A model generated the notes under the pieces. That model ran no database searches, had not been told where the DNA came from, and was given only the letters and a program-made list of their open reading frames with translations. This document shows positions 1,555-54,239 of a stretch of 64,000 bases of DNA, one piece after another. A program made the position numbers and the translations under genes. Source of the DNA: Eledone cirrhosa (lineage: Eukaryota). The DNA is taken from the NCBI GenBank assembly GCA_964016885.1, contig OZ024740.1, positions 159,340,001 through 159,404,000 of the forward strand, given 5' to 3'. The stretch's first letter is position 1. Each line of letters begins with the position of its first letter.

Positions 1555-1750
1555 GTAACAAAGGAATTGTGGTAAGGAACCAGATCGACCATAACGCACC
1601 AGAATACTCAATACTTAGGGTAGTAGAGTGGGAATTAGGAAAAAGTATTACCTCAACGGCAGAGCTCAAGCCGTTTCGCCGGCTATTTCTGGTCCAGAAA
1701 TAGCTGTCGAAACGGCTTGAGCTCTGCCGTCGGGGTAATACTTTTTCCTA
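1555..1750. mobile_element. hairpin mini-element, family H1 (PLE 3' tip containing the 3' half of a hammerhead)
   Basis: Inverted arms 1636-1692/1694-1750 with apex at 1693. Motif GAAA-cggc-ttgagctct-gccg-TC. Flanked by (TA)n. Copies at 3182, 27235 and 37927. Confidence 0.8.
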
Positions 1751-2151
1751 TATATATGTAAATATATATATATATATATATATAAGTGTATGTGTGTTAA
1801 AATGTTTGTATATTTACATCTGTACGTATTTCTTTTATGGTTATATAATTAAGATCAAATGTACTAATTATAACAAGAATCATGTTCGTAGGAACACGTT
1901 ATCGTTAATTACTTCAATGGTATGAGAAAAACTGATAACAGCTTACACAATCGTACAGACAATCCCCCCCCCCCCCCACACACATATACATATATATATA
2001 TGTATGAATATATATATATATAAATATATATATATTATATATATATGTATATATGTATATATACACATATATATATATATATATATTCATATATATATAT
2101 AGATATTCATTTATTTAAGTGTATATATATATGCATAGATCTATATATATG

Positions 2152-2243
<92 letters not shown>

Positions 2244-2585
2244 TGTGTGTGTATAAATGTTTATGGATAAAGTTTGTCTATATTTACGTGTGGATGTGTA
2301 AGTTTGCATACGCGTATACATAATATAAACATATAATCACACACGTATATCTTTGTTTTTTCTTTCTTTCACTCTCTCCCTGTTTTTACACACACACACA
2401 CACGCACATGCAAACACACACACAAACATATATTTTTAAATCGTCCATTCTCCTCCTTACTACATATGTATACAGTTATAATAAACAAAAGATAATGAAT
2501 TAATATAAGCGATAATAATGATATTGATGATGTAATTGGTCAACCATACGCTAATTTTACAACAACACAATAAAAGAAGTAATAA

Positions 2586-2640
<55 letters not shown>

Positions 2641-2938
2641 AAAAATAATAGTAATAGAAATGGTAGTTTTAATAATACTGATAAATATAGCACTAATAAG
2701 GATGAGGACAACAACTCATAACAATAATAATAGCAATGATGATGAGGAAGGAGTGGTGGATATTTTCATAATGGAGGAAGAACAATTTCGATTATTGAAT
2801 CTATGATATAATTTTTGATCAAATGCCAACTTTGTAAGCTTGACTGAAAATGTTCCCCTTGTACGTATAACACACACACACACACACGCACACACGCACA
2901 CGCACACGCACACACACACGCACGCACACACATACACA

Positions 2939-2969
<31 letters not shown>

Positions 2970-2972
2970 GCG

Positions 2973-3035
<63 letters not shown>

Positions 3036-3128
3036 ATGTATGTACGTATGTAGTGCTTCTTTGCGGGTGAATTTTTGCTACTGATGGTGGATAAAATACA
3101 TATATTCGTACACATGTGTGTGTTGTAC

Positions 3129-3181
<53 letters not shown>

Positions 3182-3368
3182 ATAGAAAACAGTTTAACCC
3201 CGACGGCAGAGCTCAAGCCGTTTCAACGGCTATTTCTGGACTAGCCGTAGAAACGGCTTGAGCTCTGCCGTCGGGGTTAAACTTTTTCCTATTACCCACT
3301 CTACTACCCTAAGTATTGAGTACTCTGGTGCGTTATGGTCCATCTGGTTCTTTACCACACTTCCTTTG

Positions 3369-3371
<3 letters not shown>
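3182..3371. mobile_element. hairpin mini-element, family H1 (opposite orientation)
   Basis: Same sequence as 1555-1750 but inverted. Apex is the native stem-loop cggcta-tttctggac-tagccg. Lies in (TA)n. Confidence 0.8.
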
Positions 3372-3414
<43 letters not shown>

Positions 3415-3722
3415 GTATATATATATGTGTGTGTGTGTTAGGTAATCCCGAAGGAAAAGCAACGAAAAAGAAAAGAGTGCTATTTAATTAAAAAGTGAAC
3501 AACAGAAAATTAAACTACTCCATTACCAAATGTTTCTGGATCTCCGACAATAATAATATACGTCTGGATCGGTCGTCAGACAGGGATGATCTCTTCAAAC
3601 CTTTGGTTATGGAATAGTTGTATTTTGTGTTGTTCACTTTCTAAATATATATATATTATATAAAAGAAAATTTCGCTCTACATGGCTGAATACAATAAAT
3701 GTAATCTGAGTTTTTCGAATAT

Positions 3723-3907
3723 TAATAATTGTTTCTACTTTAGGCACAAGGCCAGCAATCACCCAGTGCATTACTGGTACTTTATTTTATAGACCCCGTA
3801 AGGATGAAAGGCAAAGTCAACCTCGGCGGGATTTGAACTGAGATCATAAAGGGACGTAACTATGATGGAAAGCATGGCGTCGGACCCTCTACCGATACTG
3901 CCAATCC
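3723..3907 (-). mobile_element. SINE family A (left-arm copy)
   Basis: Reverse complement of 4164-4349. Confidence 0.9.
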
Positions 3908-4011
3908 AAATAACATTCGATTCGTTTGCAATTTTGCAAACAAGACTCAATTTCATAGCCATGCCAGGAGAATGAACACTTCATTCTTGCTCTTATGTCG
4001 GCATGAGAACA

Positions 4012-4060
4012 GAACTGCAGACACTAATGTTTCTGGGTATCACCCTTCCTCAGGACAGCT
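4012..4060 (-). ncRNA. type I hammerhead ribozyme
   Basis: Minus strand reads agctgtc CTGAGGA a-gggt-gat-accc-a GAAA cattagtg TC tgcagtt. Stem III is a near-palindrome. Confidence 0.75.
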
Positions 4061-4163
4061 CACTGTTCACCTGCCATAAGAGCAAGAATGAAGTGTTCAT
4101 TCTCCTGGCATGGCTATAAAATTGAGTCTTGTTTGCAAAATTGCAAACGAATCGAATGTTATT

Positions 4164-4349
4164 TGGATTGGCAGTATCGGTAGAGGGTCCGACGCCATGC
4201 TTTCCATCATAGTTACGTCCCTTTATGATCTCAGTTCAAATCCCGCCGAGGTTGACTTTGCCTTTCATCCTTACGGGGTCTATAAAATAAAGTACCAGTA
4301 ATGCACTGGGTGATTGCTGGCCTTGTGCCTAAAGTAGAAACAATTATTA
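4164..4349 (+). mobile_element. SINE family A (right-arm copy)
   Basis: A-box-like tggcagtatcgg, B-box cagttcaaatccc, conserved body. Confidence 0.9.
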
Positions 4350-4418
4350 ATATTCGAAAAACTCAGATTACATTTATTGTATTCAGCCATGTAGAGCGAA
4401 ATTTTCTTTTATATAATA

Positions 4419-5598: not shown

Positions 5599-6095
5599 TT
5601 GCGCATGTGTTACATCCGGGTGTCTGTGTGTGTTTATATTTGTTTATTTATTTGTTTATTTACATGTTGTTTATTTACTGGTTGGTTGTTTGTTCTATGT
5701 GTGTGTGTGTTTTCATTTTCATTTGAAAATGAAAACACACACACACAGACACCCGGATGTAACACATGCGCACAACACACACAAAAACAAGATGGCGTAG
5801 GACAGAACAAAGTAGAGGCACAAAAACAAAGAAAAGAATCCCCAGTCACTGAAGAGATGACAGAATGTGTGCCGAAAGAACTTTGACAATATATGAACAA
5901 TCGTCTGGTTGTGGAACCAACCAACCAACCGGAAATTTATAAATTCCTAAATTTATAAGTTTAATTTATAATAAATTGAAGTGAAAGCATGGTGCGTGTG
6001 TTTCTTATTGGCAACATGACCCTCCCAAAGTATAACAATATCGGTTTCAACACTCGTTTTCAGATAAAGAATCTTGCTAAACAAATTCAGAAACG

Positions 6096-8376: not shown

Positions 8377-8641
8377 GGAAAAAATGAAACGAAATTTCAG
8401 TTCCCACTCTTAGTACGGCTGTTACTTAAATATAAGTATATACACGTACATACATATATGTATACAGACGTACAGTAGTATATATATATATATATATACA
8501 TACATGCACACATATATATATGTACGTATGGATTCACCTAACATTTATTATAATGCTCGGTGTGTTTTTAAACAAACATCCCGTATTAAGCCGTAGTGTC
8601 TAGCAACCATCGTTGCTCGTTTGTTCAACACTGACAAAGGA

Positions 8642-8684
8642 ACGCTGTACTAGTTTCAAGCTTATTAGATATCGTCAGCAACGT
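8642..8684 (-). ncRNA. type I hammerhead ribozyme (mirror of 8952-8994)
   Basis: Exact reverse complement of 8952-8994. Confidence 0.7.
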
Positions 8685-8951
8685 ATACCTTCCTGCCAGA
8701 TTGTTGAACGTATATACTTACCTTATGCATATTAATAGCTGCGAAGCCCAATTTGCATATCGAGTGGGTTAATGGGCCGGGTGCACCGAAAACGATAAAC
8801 GGTAAAAACGAAACGAAATTTCATTTTTTTTTTCCGTTTATCGTTTTCGGTGCACCCGGCCGATTAACCCACTCGATATGCAAATTAGGCTTCGCAGCTA
8901 TTAATATGCATAAGGTAAGTATATACGTTCAACAATCTGGCAGGAAGGTAT

Positions 8952-8994
8952 ACGTTGCTGACGATATCTAATAAGCTTGAAACTAGTACAGCGT
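8952..8994 (+). ncRNA. type I hammerhead ribozyme with minimal stem III
   Basis: acgttg CTGACGA tatctaataagctt GAAA ctag TA cagcgt. Stem II is poorly paired. Confidence 0.7.
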
Positions 8995-9233
8995 TCCTTT
9001 GTCAGTGTTGAACAAACGAGCAACGATGGTTGCTAGACACTACGGCTTAATACGGGATGTTTGTTTACAAACACACCGAGCATTATAATAAATGTTCGGT
9101 GAATCCATACGTACATATATATATGTGTGCATGTATGTATATATATATACATACTAATGTACGTCTGTATACATATATTTATGTACGTGTACATACTTAT
9201 ATATATATATATATGTATATGTATATATATATA

Positions 9234-16561: not shown

Positions 16562-17392
16562 AAAATTAGTCCCTCATCAGTGATTTGCCAACGATCATTG
16601 GTATTTCATCGCATTAAAAAAGATATACCTCACGTTGGTGCGAGCAATAACTAAAATAAGCTATTGGGACAAGTGAAATGGGTAAAGCGAGTGAGACAAG
16701 TAAACAACATCGAAGAAAGGCTAATCGTTTTCATATATTTACCTAAACTGCGATTTTCTGTTTCTCTCTTTCTCTCTTACTGCTCCCTCGTTCTCTCTGT
16801 TTCTCTTACCTTCTTTCGTCCCCTCTGTCAGTTAACACTTTCTCTCGAGGGACCTCTTCCTCGCACTTCCACTCACTCACTCTCTGTTTCTCCCCTTCTC
16901 ACTTCCTCCCGTTCGCTAGGAGTCGGATCTTTCTTTCTCACATCCCATTCACAGCGAAAGGTCTGTTTGCTAAGCGCTCATGAATTCACCCAGCTTACGC
17001 TGATCGAATAACCATGTTGCTTGTTTTCTTCCCATCTTCGGTTAGCCTTTCTTTGATGTTGTTTACTTGTCTCACTCGCTTTACGCGTTTCACTTATCCC
17101 AATAGCTTATTTTAGTTATTGCTCGCACCAACGTGAGGTATATGATTTTTAATGCGATGAAATACCAATGATCGTTGGCAAATCACTGATGAGGGACTAA
17201 TTTTATAATATGTAATCCATGTGCCTCATCAGTGATTTGCCAACGATCATTGGTATTTCATCGCATTAAAAATCATATACCTCACGTTGGTGCGAGCAAT
17301 AACTAAAATAAGCTATTGGGACAAGTGAAACGCGTAAAGCGAGTGAGACAAGTAAACAACATCGAAGAAAGGCTAACCGAAGATGGGAAGAA

Positions 17393-17396
<4 letters not shown>
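16562..17396. repeat. three-armed inverted/direct repeat element containing CTGATGA half-ribozymes
   Basis: Arm 16562-16717 and arm 17224-17396 are direct; arm 17022-17204 is inverted. Flanked by (TA)n. Confidence 0.8.
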
Positions 17397-17871: not shown

Positions 17872-18150
17872 ATTATTATAGATAACGAGGAATCAGTGAT
17901 GCATCAAAACACAATTTATTAACATATTACATATGTTTCGCCGACGATCAGCTCAAGGTAGGATCTATTATAGATCAAACTTGAGTCGGATGAAATGCCT
18001 TGAAAACGATAAACATATCTGAGGATCTTGTGAATGCAGAGTCAGGTTTGATCTATAACAGATCCTACCTTGAGCTGATCGTCGGAGAAACATATGTAAT
18101 ATGTAAATAAATTGTTTTAATGCATCACTGATTCCTCGTTATCTATAATA
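17872..18150. mobile_element. hairpin mini-element, family H5
   Basis: Arms 17872-17985 and 18040-18150. Full hammerhead on the + strand; the left arm starts inside stem II. Confidence 0.85.
18013..18104 (+). ncRNA. type I hammerhead ribozyme with extended stem II
   Basis: acatat CTGAGGA [61 nt] GAAA catatg TA atatgt. Confidence 0.85.
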
Positions 18151-18648
18151 TATATATATATGGTATTAGCATTGGTGCTCTGAAATAGCGATGTATACAT
18201 GAATGTATGTATAGTATATTTAGCAATATACCGTATGTTTAATTAAAAACATTTAGAAGACCATTGGCCATGAGTTTTAAAAAGATGTAATCGAAAATGC
18301 AACTGGAGTCTTATTTTTAAAAAAATATATATATTTATTTGGTTCCTTTACCGGTTTCGCAGTTCTTCTCGATTTTCGATTTCATCTTTTTTTCTTTATA
18401 CTTTCACTCGTGTAGGACACCTCGGTTATTTTTCATTTTGTAAAAAACCCTCACTTTCTAATATATGTATATATATATATATATATACAGTATTTTCCGT
18501 AGTGTTGTAATATAAATATTACACACAGTAGATGGACAGCTCACGTAGAGTTTGCTCGACGGTTCCAGTTGTAGTTCCAAAAGTAATCCGGAGAAAAATA
18601 GAAGGATTTAAATGGATACAGTTTAGTTAAAAGGACACGTGTTTCAAT

Positions 18649-27234: not shown

Positions 27235-27237
<3 letters not shown>

Positions 27238-27419
27238 CAAATGGACTAGATGGACCATAACGCACCAGAGTACTCAATACTTAGGGTAGTAGAGTGGGAA
27301 ATAGGAAAAAGTAAGACCCCGACGGCAGAGCTCAAGCCGTTTCGACGGCTATTACTGGAGTCCAGAAATAGCCGTCGAAACGGCTTGAGCTCTGCCGTCG
27401 GAGTCTTACTTTTTCCTAT
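27235..27419. mobile_element. hairpin mini-element, family H1
   Basis: Arms 27301-27359 and 27361-27419, apex tgga-g-tcca. Lies in (TA)n. Confidence 0.8.
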
Positions 27420-34464: not shown

Positions 34465-34600
<136 letters not shown>

Positions 34601-34602
34601 GT

Positions 34603-35211
34603 ATAAGAAAAAGTTTCAAAATAAATTTCAAAAAATTTACTGTACTCACTATGGTTACCTTTACCGAATCGGTTTCGAGTCTCAAAAATAAATGGACAGT
34701 CCTTGCGGCCTTCCATTGAAAAGATAAACTCTCGTCAGAAGGTTCTTTTCACTCGGAGAATATAAAATTCCCGAGTTCAAATTACGAACTGGCGCTATTC
34801 AAAATTGTTCCCGAGATGAGAATGAATGATGTGGAAGCAATTCTGTCCAGTGCCGTGTTTAAAGATACAAGCAGAGGCAGGGAGGTCAGTTTACTACCAC
34901 TATAAATAGAAGCAGTCAAAACGACCAAATATTTTCTCGACCAAGAGGAGCTAATAATAATAAAGTATATATCCCTACACACAATAAGCGTCCAGGGACA
35001 CATGTATTGTCCAACCATATGCCAATGTGGTTCAATGGCAGGTTAATAAATTAACGAGCCAGAACATATATAATCAAGGTTTAGCAAATAAGAAAAAGTT
35101 TCAAAATAAATTTCAAAAAATTCACTCTACTCACTATTCACTGTACTCACCGAATCGGTTTCGAGTCTCAAAATTAAATGGACAGTTCTTGCGGCGGCTT
35201 TCCATTGAAAA

Positions 35212-35215
<4 letters not shown>
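34603..35215 (-). mobile_element. ORF-less, terminally redundant hammerhead element (retrozyme-like, ~486-nt period)
   Basis: 34604-34725 is repeated directly at 35089-35215. Flanked by (TA)n. Confidence 0.8.
34657..34743 (-). ncRNA. type I hammerhead ribozyme, intact
   Basis: Minus strand reads acctt CTGACGA gagttt [loop with internal aatgga/tccatt helix] agactc GAAA ccg-att-cgg TA aaggt. Confidence 0.9.
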
Positions 35216-35276
<61 letters not shown>

Positions 35277-35334
35277 CCAATACTGGAATTGAACCATCCA
35301 GGCCGTTGAGGTATGTCATACATCAATTCATGTA

Positions 35335-35396
35335 TTTTATCTGACGAGGACGTACTGAAAAAACAGCACAGTACCTTCGAAATATATATAATAAAA
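35335..35396 (+). ncRNA. type I hammerhead ribozyme within a ~265-bp island (35275-35540) in (TA)n
   Basis: ttttat CTGACGA ggacgtactg-aaaaaacagca-cagtaccttc GAAA tatata TA ataaaa. Confidence 0.85.
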
Positions 35397-35804
35397 CATA
35401 TTTTTATTATGTGAATGTCTTCATTTATTAATATTCTGAATAATATTAATAACACCAGAAAACGTCACTGTAGAGTGCTTTTAATCTATTGTAAAACTAT
35501 ATTCATCGAGTAATCAATGAACCATATTAATCTTTGGTTATATATATATATATATATATATATATGGACAATAACAACACATTGGGATGGGAACTTCCCT
35601 CAAGCTATAGGGTCAGTAGACCCGCCACATAGAGCCCAAGGTAAACCACCCCTACACACTCACCACCCCTACTACCGCCTCGATCGACTCCTAGAGCAAC
35701 ACATACTTATACATATGTCCATATATAGATACTGTTATTTAAAATTCTACATATATAAATATGTGTGTATATATATATATATTTTTTCAAAACATACTTA
35801 CTTG

Positions 35805-37926: not shown

Positions 37927-38050
37927 TAACAAAGAACGTGTGGTAAGGAACCAGGTTGACCATAACGCACCAGAGTACTTGATACTTAGGGTAGTAGAGT
38001 TAGGATTTAGCTGTCGAAACGGCCCGAGTTCAGCCGTCGGGGTCCTGACT

Positions 38051-38054
<4 letters not shown>
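37927..38054. mobile_element. family H1 remnant with non-overlapping arms
   Basis: Inverted long tail joined directly to tagctgtcGAAAcggc...gccgTCgggg, then the short end. Confidence 0.75.
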
Positions 38055-38090
<36 letters not shown>

Positions 38091-53502: not shown

Positions 53503-53886
53503 TAAGATATGAACTATTAGTATACCGTACAGAGATATGAATTCCATCTTAAATGTTATGAGGCGTAGCTAAATAGATGAAAAATATATAGTAAAATAAT
53601 ATAAGAAAAAATAATTTACATATATTCATGCATATGCGCACGCATATATATATATATATTAAAATAACAGATTAAAGTTGCTTAAAATAACAGATTAAAG
53701 TCCCTTAACGGGATCTTCTGAAACTTTTAATAAATATTTGCTCTACGGTTCTTATATATTTGATATATATTTATCCTTATCGAACCCTCTTTGGATTTTA
53801 GTCTCCAAATTTATTATTATTACTATATATATATATATATATTACTATATATATATTACTATATATATATATATATATATATATAG

Positions 53887-53922
<36 letters not shown>

Positions 53923-54239
53923 ATAATAATAAATTTGAAGACTAAAATCCAAAGAGGGTTCGATAAGGATAAATATATATCAAATATATAAGAACCGTAG
54001 AGCAAATATTTATTAAAAGTTTCAGAAGATCCCGTTAAGGGTGAAAGCAGCGATTCTTTGCTTAAACTTTAATCTGTTATTTTAATATATATATATATGC
54101 GTGCGCATATGCATGACTATATGTAAATTATTTTTTCTTATATTATTTTACTATATATTTTTCATCTATTTAGCTACGCCTCATAACATTTAAGATGGAA
54201 TTCATATCTCTGTACGGTATACTAATAGTTCATATCTTA
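53503..54239. repeat. ~740-bp palindrome containing two tail-to-tail family H3 mini-elements
   Basis: 53503-53823 is the reverse complement of 53919-54239. The centre is (TA)n. Confidence 0.88.

Follow-up and report, generated by a model that had tools for sequence, protein, structure and literature searches.

Head-to-head Penelope-like stubs in Eledone cirrhosa and a probable transcription start inside loop II of a variant hammerhead ribozyme

The explanation that we judge probable from the sequences is that the palindromic hairpins (family H1) of the window, i.e. of the whole 64,000-nt stretch of DNA analysed, are short copies of a Penelope-like element (PLE) placed head to head, and that their common 5' end marks a transcription start in loop II of a hammerhead ribozyme with a U3-A8 core. 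Throughout the text the A of TYAGTY in loop II is numbered +1; the 3' strand of stem II then takes up positions +8..+16, the GAAA block +19..+22, and the predicted cut falls after +41.

Four hairpin copies are present in the window (Table 1), near 1693, 3236, 27360 and 37927, with the junction letters given in the initial annotation, and all four lack CTGANGA, as stated there. The hairpins have arms of unequal length and (TA)n on both flanks, so that this (TA)n is also what stands where a target-site duplication would be sought. In each copy one arm comes close to the same position, with the furthest 5' reach at +2 in copy 1, -1 in copy 2, +1 in copy 3 and +1 in copy 4. The last value is a by-eye reading against parents of subfamily C, while the script halted at +11 on mismatches. 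In copy 1, G1692 is common to both arms, a microhomology of 1 nt. A 29-nt core of the family had 37,497 exact matches genome-wide, compared to 0 for the reversed control.

Table 1. Hairpin copies and related features in the window (positions in the window; element positions relative to +1).
Feature	Positions	Strand	Description
Copy 1, long arm	1556..1692	-	Element +4 to about +140 (ribozyme 3' half and tail), terminal (TA)n
Copy 1, short arm	1692..1751	+	Element +2 to about +60; predicted cleavage site after 1731
Copy 2, short arm	3182..3243	-	Extends to -1/+1
Copy 2, long arm	3242..3371	+	+11 to +140; 2-nt microhomology at 3242-3243
Copy 3, long arm	27236..27359	-	From +3; small deletion near tail end
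Copy 3, short arm	27359..27419	+	From +1; 1-nt microhomology
Copy 4, long arm	37927..38000	-	Cut short at +69
Copy 4, short arm	37998..38055	+	Older C subfamily; from +1; 3-nt microhomology
H5, right arm	17984..18150	+	Starts at initiator-like A; whole ribozyme, CTGAGGA at 18019
35215 family	34600..35215	-	Partial tandem; downstream unit with whole ribozyme at 34738
18343 family	18331..18367	-	Short partner arm with GAAA block; family start 30 nt behind TATAAAA

In two matches the stub sequence ran on past the stub end into coding sequence, and a search with that piece gave long copies. The parent forms tandem arrays with a period of 3,543 bp and intact 718-aa frames that combine a reverse transcriptase (RT) with a GIY-YIG domain. 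Along the frame we found RWR at 37 (a K to R change in the RWK motif), DKT at 117 in place of DKG, YRDD at 348, a CxCX5C linker at 572, a C-terminal GIY-YIG-like VIY..YIG at 591, CxxC at 670 and CxH at 698. Searches of Pfam and PDB with the element ORF gave no match, and a homologue search returned 2,154 relatives, the best of them 40-54% identical. A single ORF, RW(K/R), DKT, the CxCX5C linker, and CxxC and CxH around GIY-YIG are the marks described for Hydra-clade PLEs (PMC8557442). The layout of the element (insertion into (TA)n, tandem and inverted arrangement, a tail) presents further traits of the clade, and the protein looks similar by eye to the Hydra sequences aligned in the supplement of that paper. 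Judged by these motifs, the parent belongs to the Hydra clade of Penelope-like elements and is autonomous. At three loci (L161, L162 and L164) the 3,543-bp monomers stand head to tail with frames intact, which suggests recent activity.

The likeness to Hydra-1_Obim and other Hydra-clade PLEs covers the single ORF, all of the above protein motifs with a C-terminal GIY-YIG, the (TA)n target, a ribozyme in the repeat, an inverted 5'-truncated partner and a tail (PMC8557442). The parent is nevertheless a family distinct from Hydra-1_Obim, whose repeat letters are absent from the supplement of PMC8557442. Its monomers are 3.0-3.5 kb long, while Hydra-clade PLEs are described there as generally under 3 kb. 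The Hydra ribozymes given in file S2 of the same paper all have a CUGANGA core and a loop II of 3-10 nt; the ribozyme described here combines UUGANAA with a loop II of 33 nt and a stem III of 5 bp.

The upstream half of this ribozyme consists of CCCC followed by TTGANAA and by a strand that pairs with the stem II 3' strand across the loop of about 33 nt. In 43 scored intact copies (46 were found) the core read TTGANAA in 38, CTGAGAA in 4 and TTCATAA in 1, and none of the 43 had the CUGANGA..GAAA..UH core of a type I hammerhead. All four bases occurred at N7 (position 7) of the TTGANAA copies. In TTGANAA the C3-G8 pair is replaced by U3-A8, a covariation described in Schistosoma PLEs (PMC4209133); a U3-A8 variant was reported to be active in vitro (PMC3088659). 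Since the variant core has this published active form, the claim that the motif works like a hammerhead still stands as a prediction. The initial annotation had foreseen correctly a retro-element parent with a hammerhead fold, but not its core. Of 34 genomic matches that combined CTGANGA with the family core, 30 were inspected and none had both stem I and stem II; these 30 were junction fillers or joins to other repeats. The CTGAGAA subfamily (loci L096, L160 and L208) carries a C3-A8 mismatch, with which the ribozyme is probably inactive; its copies spread nonetheless.

Across 24 aligned copies the three-helix fold had 93.8% of 480 cells paired, compared to 24-52% in slid controls. Three pairs of stem II changed on both sides between subfamilies, mostly at one split, so the covariation amounts to few events. 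In energy folding the centroid was a three-way junction for an A copy only (z -2.3), and the ribozyme fold was not recovered for the B and C copies. The intact ribozyme form had 2,971 exact matches in the genome and the older subfamily 196; no hammerhead appeared among the 150 Rfam matches listed. The covariation from C3-G8 to U3-A8 is shared with the Schistosoma Cercyon PLE (PMC4209133, PMC3088659). In these sources U3-A8 hammerheads are not listed for the Hydra clade, and the form found here differs in its long loop II with a promoter-like motif.

We determined where truncated copies start in the window and at 86 further loci (76 of them at the first matches to the core on contig C1, the other 10 chosen arbitrarily). 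The 168 arms at these places made up 110 insertions, of which 91 were truncated and 19 retained the whole ribozyme. Among the truncated insertions the furthest 5' end was located at -3..+2 in 55 cases and at +3..+7 in 24; another 6 extended to -4 or past it, and 6 stopped at +8 or downstream of it. The mode was +1/+2 of TYAGTY. An interval of 10 nt thus holds the furthest 5' end of 79 of the 110 insertions, i.e. of 79 of the 91 truncated ones; with ends spread uniformly over the 3,543-bp monomer about 0.3% would be expected there. The earlier observation that the apexes cluster was confirmed on this larger scale.

Because this sample requires the core, a second one was anchored on the tail instead. 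There, 58 of 101 long arms started at -4..+7 and only 2 near the predicted cleavage site. The 34 tail-anchored arms that had not been chosen by the core are less uniform: only 12 started at -4..+7, while 12 started beyond +46, some of the latter partnered by a short arm that reaches +1. Single copies joined directly to (TA)n, without a hairpin, share the same start (about 56 distinct places among the first 100 matches listed). Given the clustering in both samples and the direct (TA)n joins at the same bases, the cluster reflects where the template itself has its 5' end. Its upstream edge is sharp, and its place is loop II rather than a helix. A turn inside stem II, as first proposed, was not confirmed, and copy 4, thought to resume in that stem, resumes in the loop. 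The 5' half of the ribozyme was likely never in the RNA, rather than deleted from the copies.

Subfamilies that have no other likeness in loop II still retain TYAGTY, which is close to TCAKTY, the initiator consensus of Drosophila (PMC4581360, Table 1). In Drosophila promoters the TATA box stands at -30/-31 (PMC4581360, Table 1); a TATA-like word occurs at -29..-31 in subfamilies A and B, and none is seen in C.

Similar clusters were found in the comparison families. The left arm of H5 starts inside the ribozyme, in keeping with the initial annotation; the right arm extends as far as an initiator-like motif that precedes an intact CTGAGGA by 35 nt. An initiator-like site upstream of the ribozyme was reached by 13 of 22 truncated H5 insertions (4 of the 13 by eye from partner arms), and a second, broad cluster of 7 ended at +48..+69 inside the ribozyme. 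Among the H5 loci (L181-L210) this second cluster adjoins a small perfect hairpin. In the 18343 family, 11 of 18 truncated insertions started at -1..+5, with TATAAAA at -30. This family had been thought to begin in stem II as well, but in 4 of 4 long copies no stem II partner or CUGANGA was found within 1,450 nt upstream. The upstream unit of the 35215 family starts just behind the stem II 5' strand, close to where it had been placed, in the one copy seen. Judged by the sequence words next to them, the larger H5 cluster and the 18343 cluster follow an initiator or a TATA box, not stem II. As a separate observation, the stub start of the 18343 family (window 18331-18465, loci L271-L300) is preceded by canonical CCAAT and TATAAAA; the family, which has a GAAA-palindrome block, had 11,632 exact core matches.

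These data bear on the proposal that the ribozyme helix is a hot spot for reverse transcription stops or template switches. Reverse transcription does end or jump at this place, but in loop II, after stems I', III and II' have been passed, and not at the helix. An RT stall or switch at the structure of the whole ribozyme on a longer RNA, either at stem II or at the inner hairpin of loop II, could draw on several observations. Folding places +1 in a weak inner hairpin of 7-8 bp in A and B; the H5 insertions that end within the ribozyme and the 35215 unit that starts beside stem II fit a stall too. On the other hand, the ends lie 5' of the stem II 3' strand, only 6 of 91 being at +8 or beyond, and the RT had passed stem III, the stronger helix, before reaching them. 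The inner hairpin of subfamily C does not extend to the motif, and still the C-type stubs start at +1/+2 (fewer than 10 copies, read by eye). The 18343 family has the same kind of cluster without a stem II partner, and the extra G described below is not predicted. We therefore regard a stall as unlikely. Since the ends follow promoter-like motifs across families, past stems I', III and II', a helix stop is not supported for H1; for H5 the second cluster lends it partial support.

The TYAGTY motif could also be read as a 3' splice site, or mark another processing site that creates the RNA 5' end. YAG precedes +3 in all subfamilies and a TAA word stands about 16 nt upstream; three arms end at -14..-17; and in Penelope of D. 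virilis an intron next to the ribozyme ends at helix I (PMC4209133). However, the modes of the 5' ends are +1/+2 rather than +3, no upstream exon recurs in the junctions read, and the 18343 and H5 clusters follow TATA or initiator words. Processing of this kind appears improbable as the source of the common end, for which we retain a transcription start.

At the opposite side of the copies, the 3' ends group at two sites, near +60 and near +140, each at a TAT with microhomology to the (TA)n target. The same tail signature in the Poseidon element PAc of Anolis has been traced to a pair of internal RT start sites, one at either side of the tail; in PAc, both strands of the target are cut and extended (PMC11167929). 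A short arm was paired with a long arm in 52 of 58 hairpins. In these 52 the further 5' reach belonged to the short arm in 21, to the long arm in 19 and to neither in 12. The 21 short arms with 5' bases absent from the long arm imply that neither arm was copied from the other, and hence that both were made from RNA. Both arms carried the same subfamily variant in 50 of 56 hairpins (shuffled mean 12). This agreement suggests that a single RNA or a single source supplied both arms, although later gene conversion could add to it. Arms with different subfamily variants at L139 (about 5576) are a possible two-RNA event. Among 57 joints, 20 had microhomology of 1-4 nt, 9 were blunt and the rest contained fillers.

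Inverted 5'-truncated partner copies are a standard trait of PLEs (PMC8557442, PMC3846280), and for rotifer Penelope palindromes it was proposed that one cDNA or antisense template folds back and primes itself (PMC3846280). Such self-priming would agree with the variants shared between arms and with fillers that copy nearby sequence, and it may account for a share of the copies. It is hard to hold for the 21 hairpins just mentioned, in which the long arm has 80 nt absent from the short one; joints with a spacer of 0-1 nt cannot be priming hairpins; and single copies start at the same base, a position that self-priming leaves unexplained. As a general origin we find it quite improbable, and we prefer two cDNAs made from RNA.

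MITEs are short, very numerous and palindromic elements in a TA context, and the hairpins have all of this in common with them. The hairpins are unlike MITEs in having no fixed terminal inverted repeats, no transposase parent, a variable centre and a retro-origin. The junction strings, which the initial annotation had seen to differ between three copies, were distinct in 53 of 58 hairpins from unbiased sampling, a count that later point changes inflate somewhat; an identical apex, as in a true MITE, is not what these copies have. The apex of copy 1 recurs in about 23 of its best 30 matches, which could suggest a MITE or the amplification of one master hairpin as a whole, but these matches were ranked by likeness to copy 1. 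The differing junctions, the unequal arms, the missing terminal inverted repeats and the continuity with an RT-coding parent refute such an origin as a general one, and we give it hardly any weight; secondary spread of some stubs may have occurred. In summary of the earlier wording, the palindromes do arise repeatedly and without a transposase, while "MITE-like" does not suit copies with unequal arms that need the RT/endonuclease of the element.

A further feature was seen at flush joints, in which both arms start at +1 with one base between them. The base was G/C in 45 cases and A/T in 5 (50 listed of 197 loci), compared to T at -1 in 26 of 26 intact A-type parents. Of 40 fetched cases, 23 had the extra G on the long arm and 14 on the short one, and several sequence variants were represented. 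Presence on both arm types and in several variants argues that the flush joints do not descend from one master copy. Full-length L1 insertions carry an extra G that was ascribed to the cap (PMC11702581), and by analogy the G at flush joints looks like a cap-derived one. Conversely, the base before +1 in unbiased A-type stubs was T in 12, G in 9, C in 4 and A in 2, with several of the G belonging to the partner arm, and untemplated C addition by the RT could produce an extra G without a cap. The ratio of G to C at direct (TA)n joins (71:19) was dropped as uninformative; it exceeds the ATAT?A background (563:556), but not that of long (TA)n (923:143).

We propose the following order of events. 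RNA polymerase II would start at TYA(+1)GTY. The resulting RNA would open with the 3' half of the ribozyme, and its first 140 nt would include both priming sites. The protein of the element would cut both strands of a (TA)n target, and each target 3' end would prime at one of the two sites (about +60 or +140) of one RNA. Both cDNAs would run off the capped RNA 5' end and, after some trimming, be joined by microhomology or short templated fillers. Use of the same two sites in the 3' repeat would give long copies that keep the whole ribozyme, since the RNA would hold a whole ribozyme only at its far (3') end. At L024:1500-2100, L070 and L080, a stub is followed by a piece of the 5' ORF and a second stub from +2 in the same direction; we read this arrangement as a jump of the RT to a second RNA template on reaching the 5' end of the first.

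More tentatively, the promoter may split the ribozyme in a way that matters for the element. The capped 5' end would never self-cleave, and only the 3' or read-through copy could do so; the cut would remove the 3' priming sites and leave the 5' ones. The ribozyme might then steer RNA from full-length copies to stubs, and the stubs, which number in the tens of thousands, would be a base-resolution record of both the start and the twin priming on one capped RNA.

With PAc of Anolis the element shares the two internal RT starts that bound the tail and the cutting and extension of both strands, the uncut RNA being the template there (PMC11167929). PAc belongs to another clade; in the element described here the sites are 80 nt apart, and PMC11167929 contains no analysis of stubs or of a start site in the ribozyme in the parts consulted. 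Penelope of D. virilis and Adineta Pen1-3 likewise have an initiator promoter inside the pseudo-LTR, head-to-head inverted repeats and palindromic joints (PMC2377424, PMC3846280). In those elements the start site precedes the ribozyme, an intron borders directly on helix I, and the joints were explained by antisense self-priming. The open-access literature searched contained neither this family nor a start site inside loop II of a PLE ribozyme, a U3-A8 core in the Hydra clade or a cap-like G in Penelope joints. As far as the sequences tell, the variant core in the Hydra clade, the start inside loop II and the extra G would be new, while inverted stubs were already known as a Penelope trait.

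The role of hammerheads in PLEs and the origin of the inverted repeats were named as open questions in PMC8557442. The family leads to sharp predictions on both: transcription should start at a site that cuts the ribozyme in half, and the joints should require two cDNAs made on an RNA template. Short Penelope stubs can serve to map promoters from DNA alone, and they are open to confusion with MITEs. The ribozyme variant is very abundant (the 2,971 exact matches above) and escapes both CUGANGA searches and Rfam, as far as the 150 matches listed there go.

Other repeats of the window are of interest as well. Four copies of another family, at 5849, 9358, 55573 and 58734, contain a whole CUGAAGA hammerhead, and a stub of a further family at 35271-35545 has a whole CTGACGA hammerhead at 35341. 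Long near-perfect inverted repeats occupy 3654-4418, 8483-9153, 17022-17396 and 53503-54239; the first of them mirrors unrelated repeats and flank.
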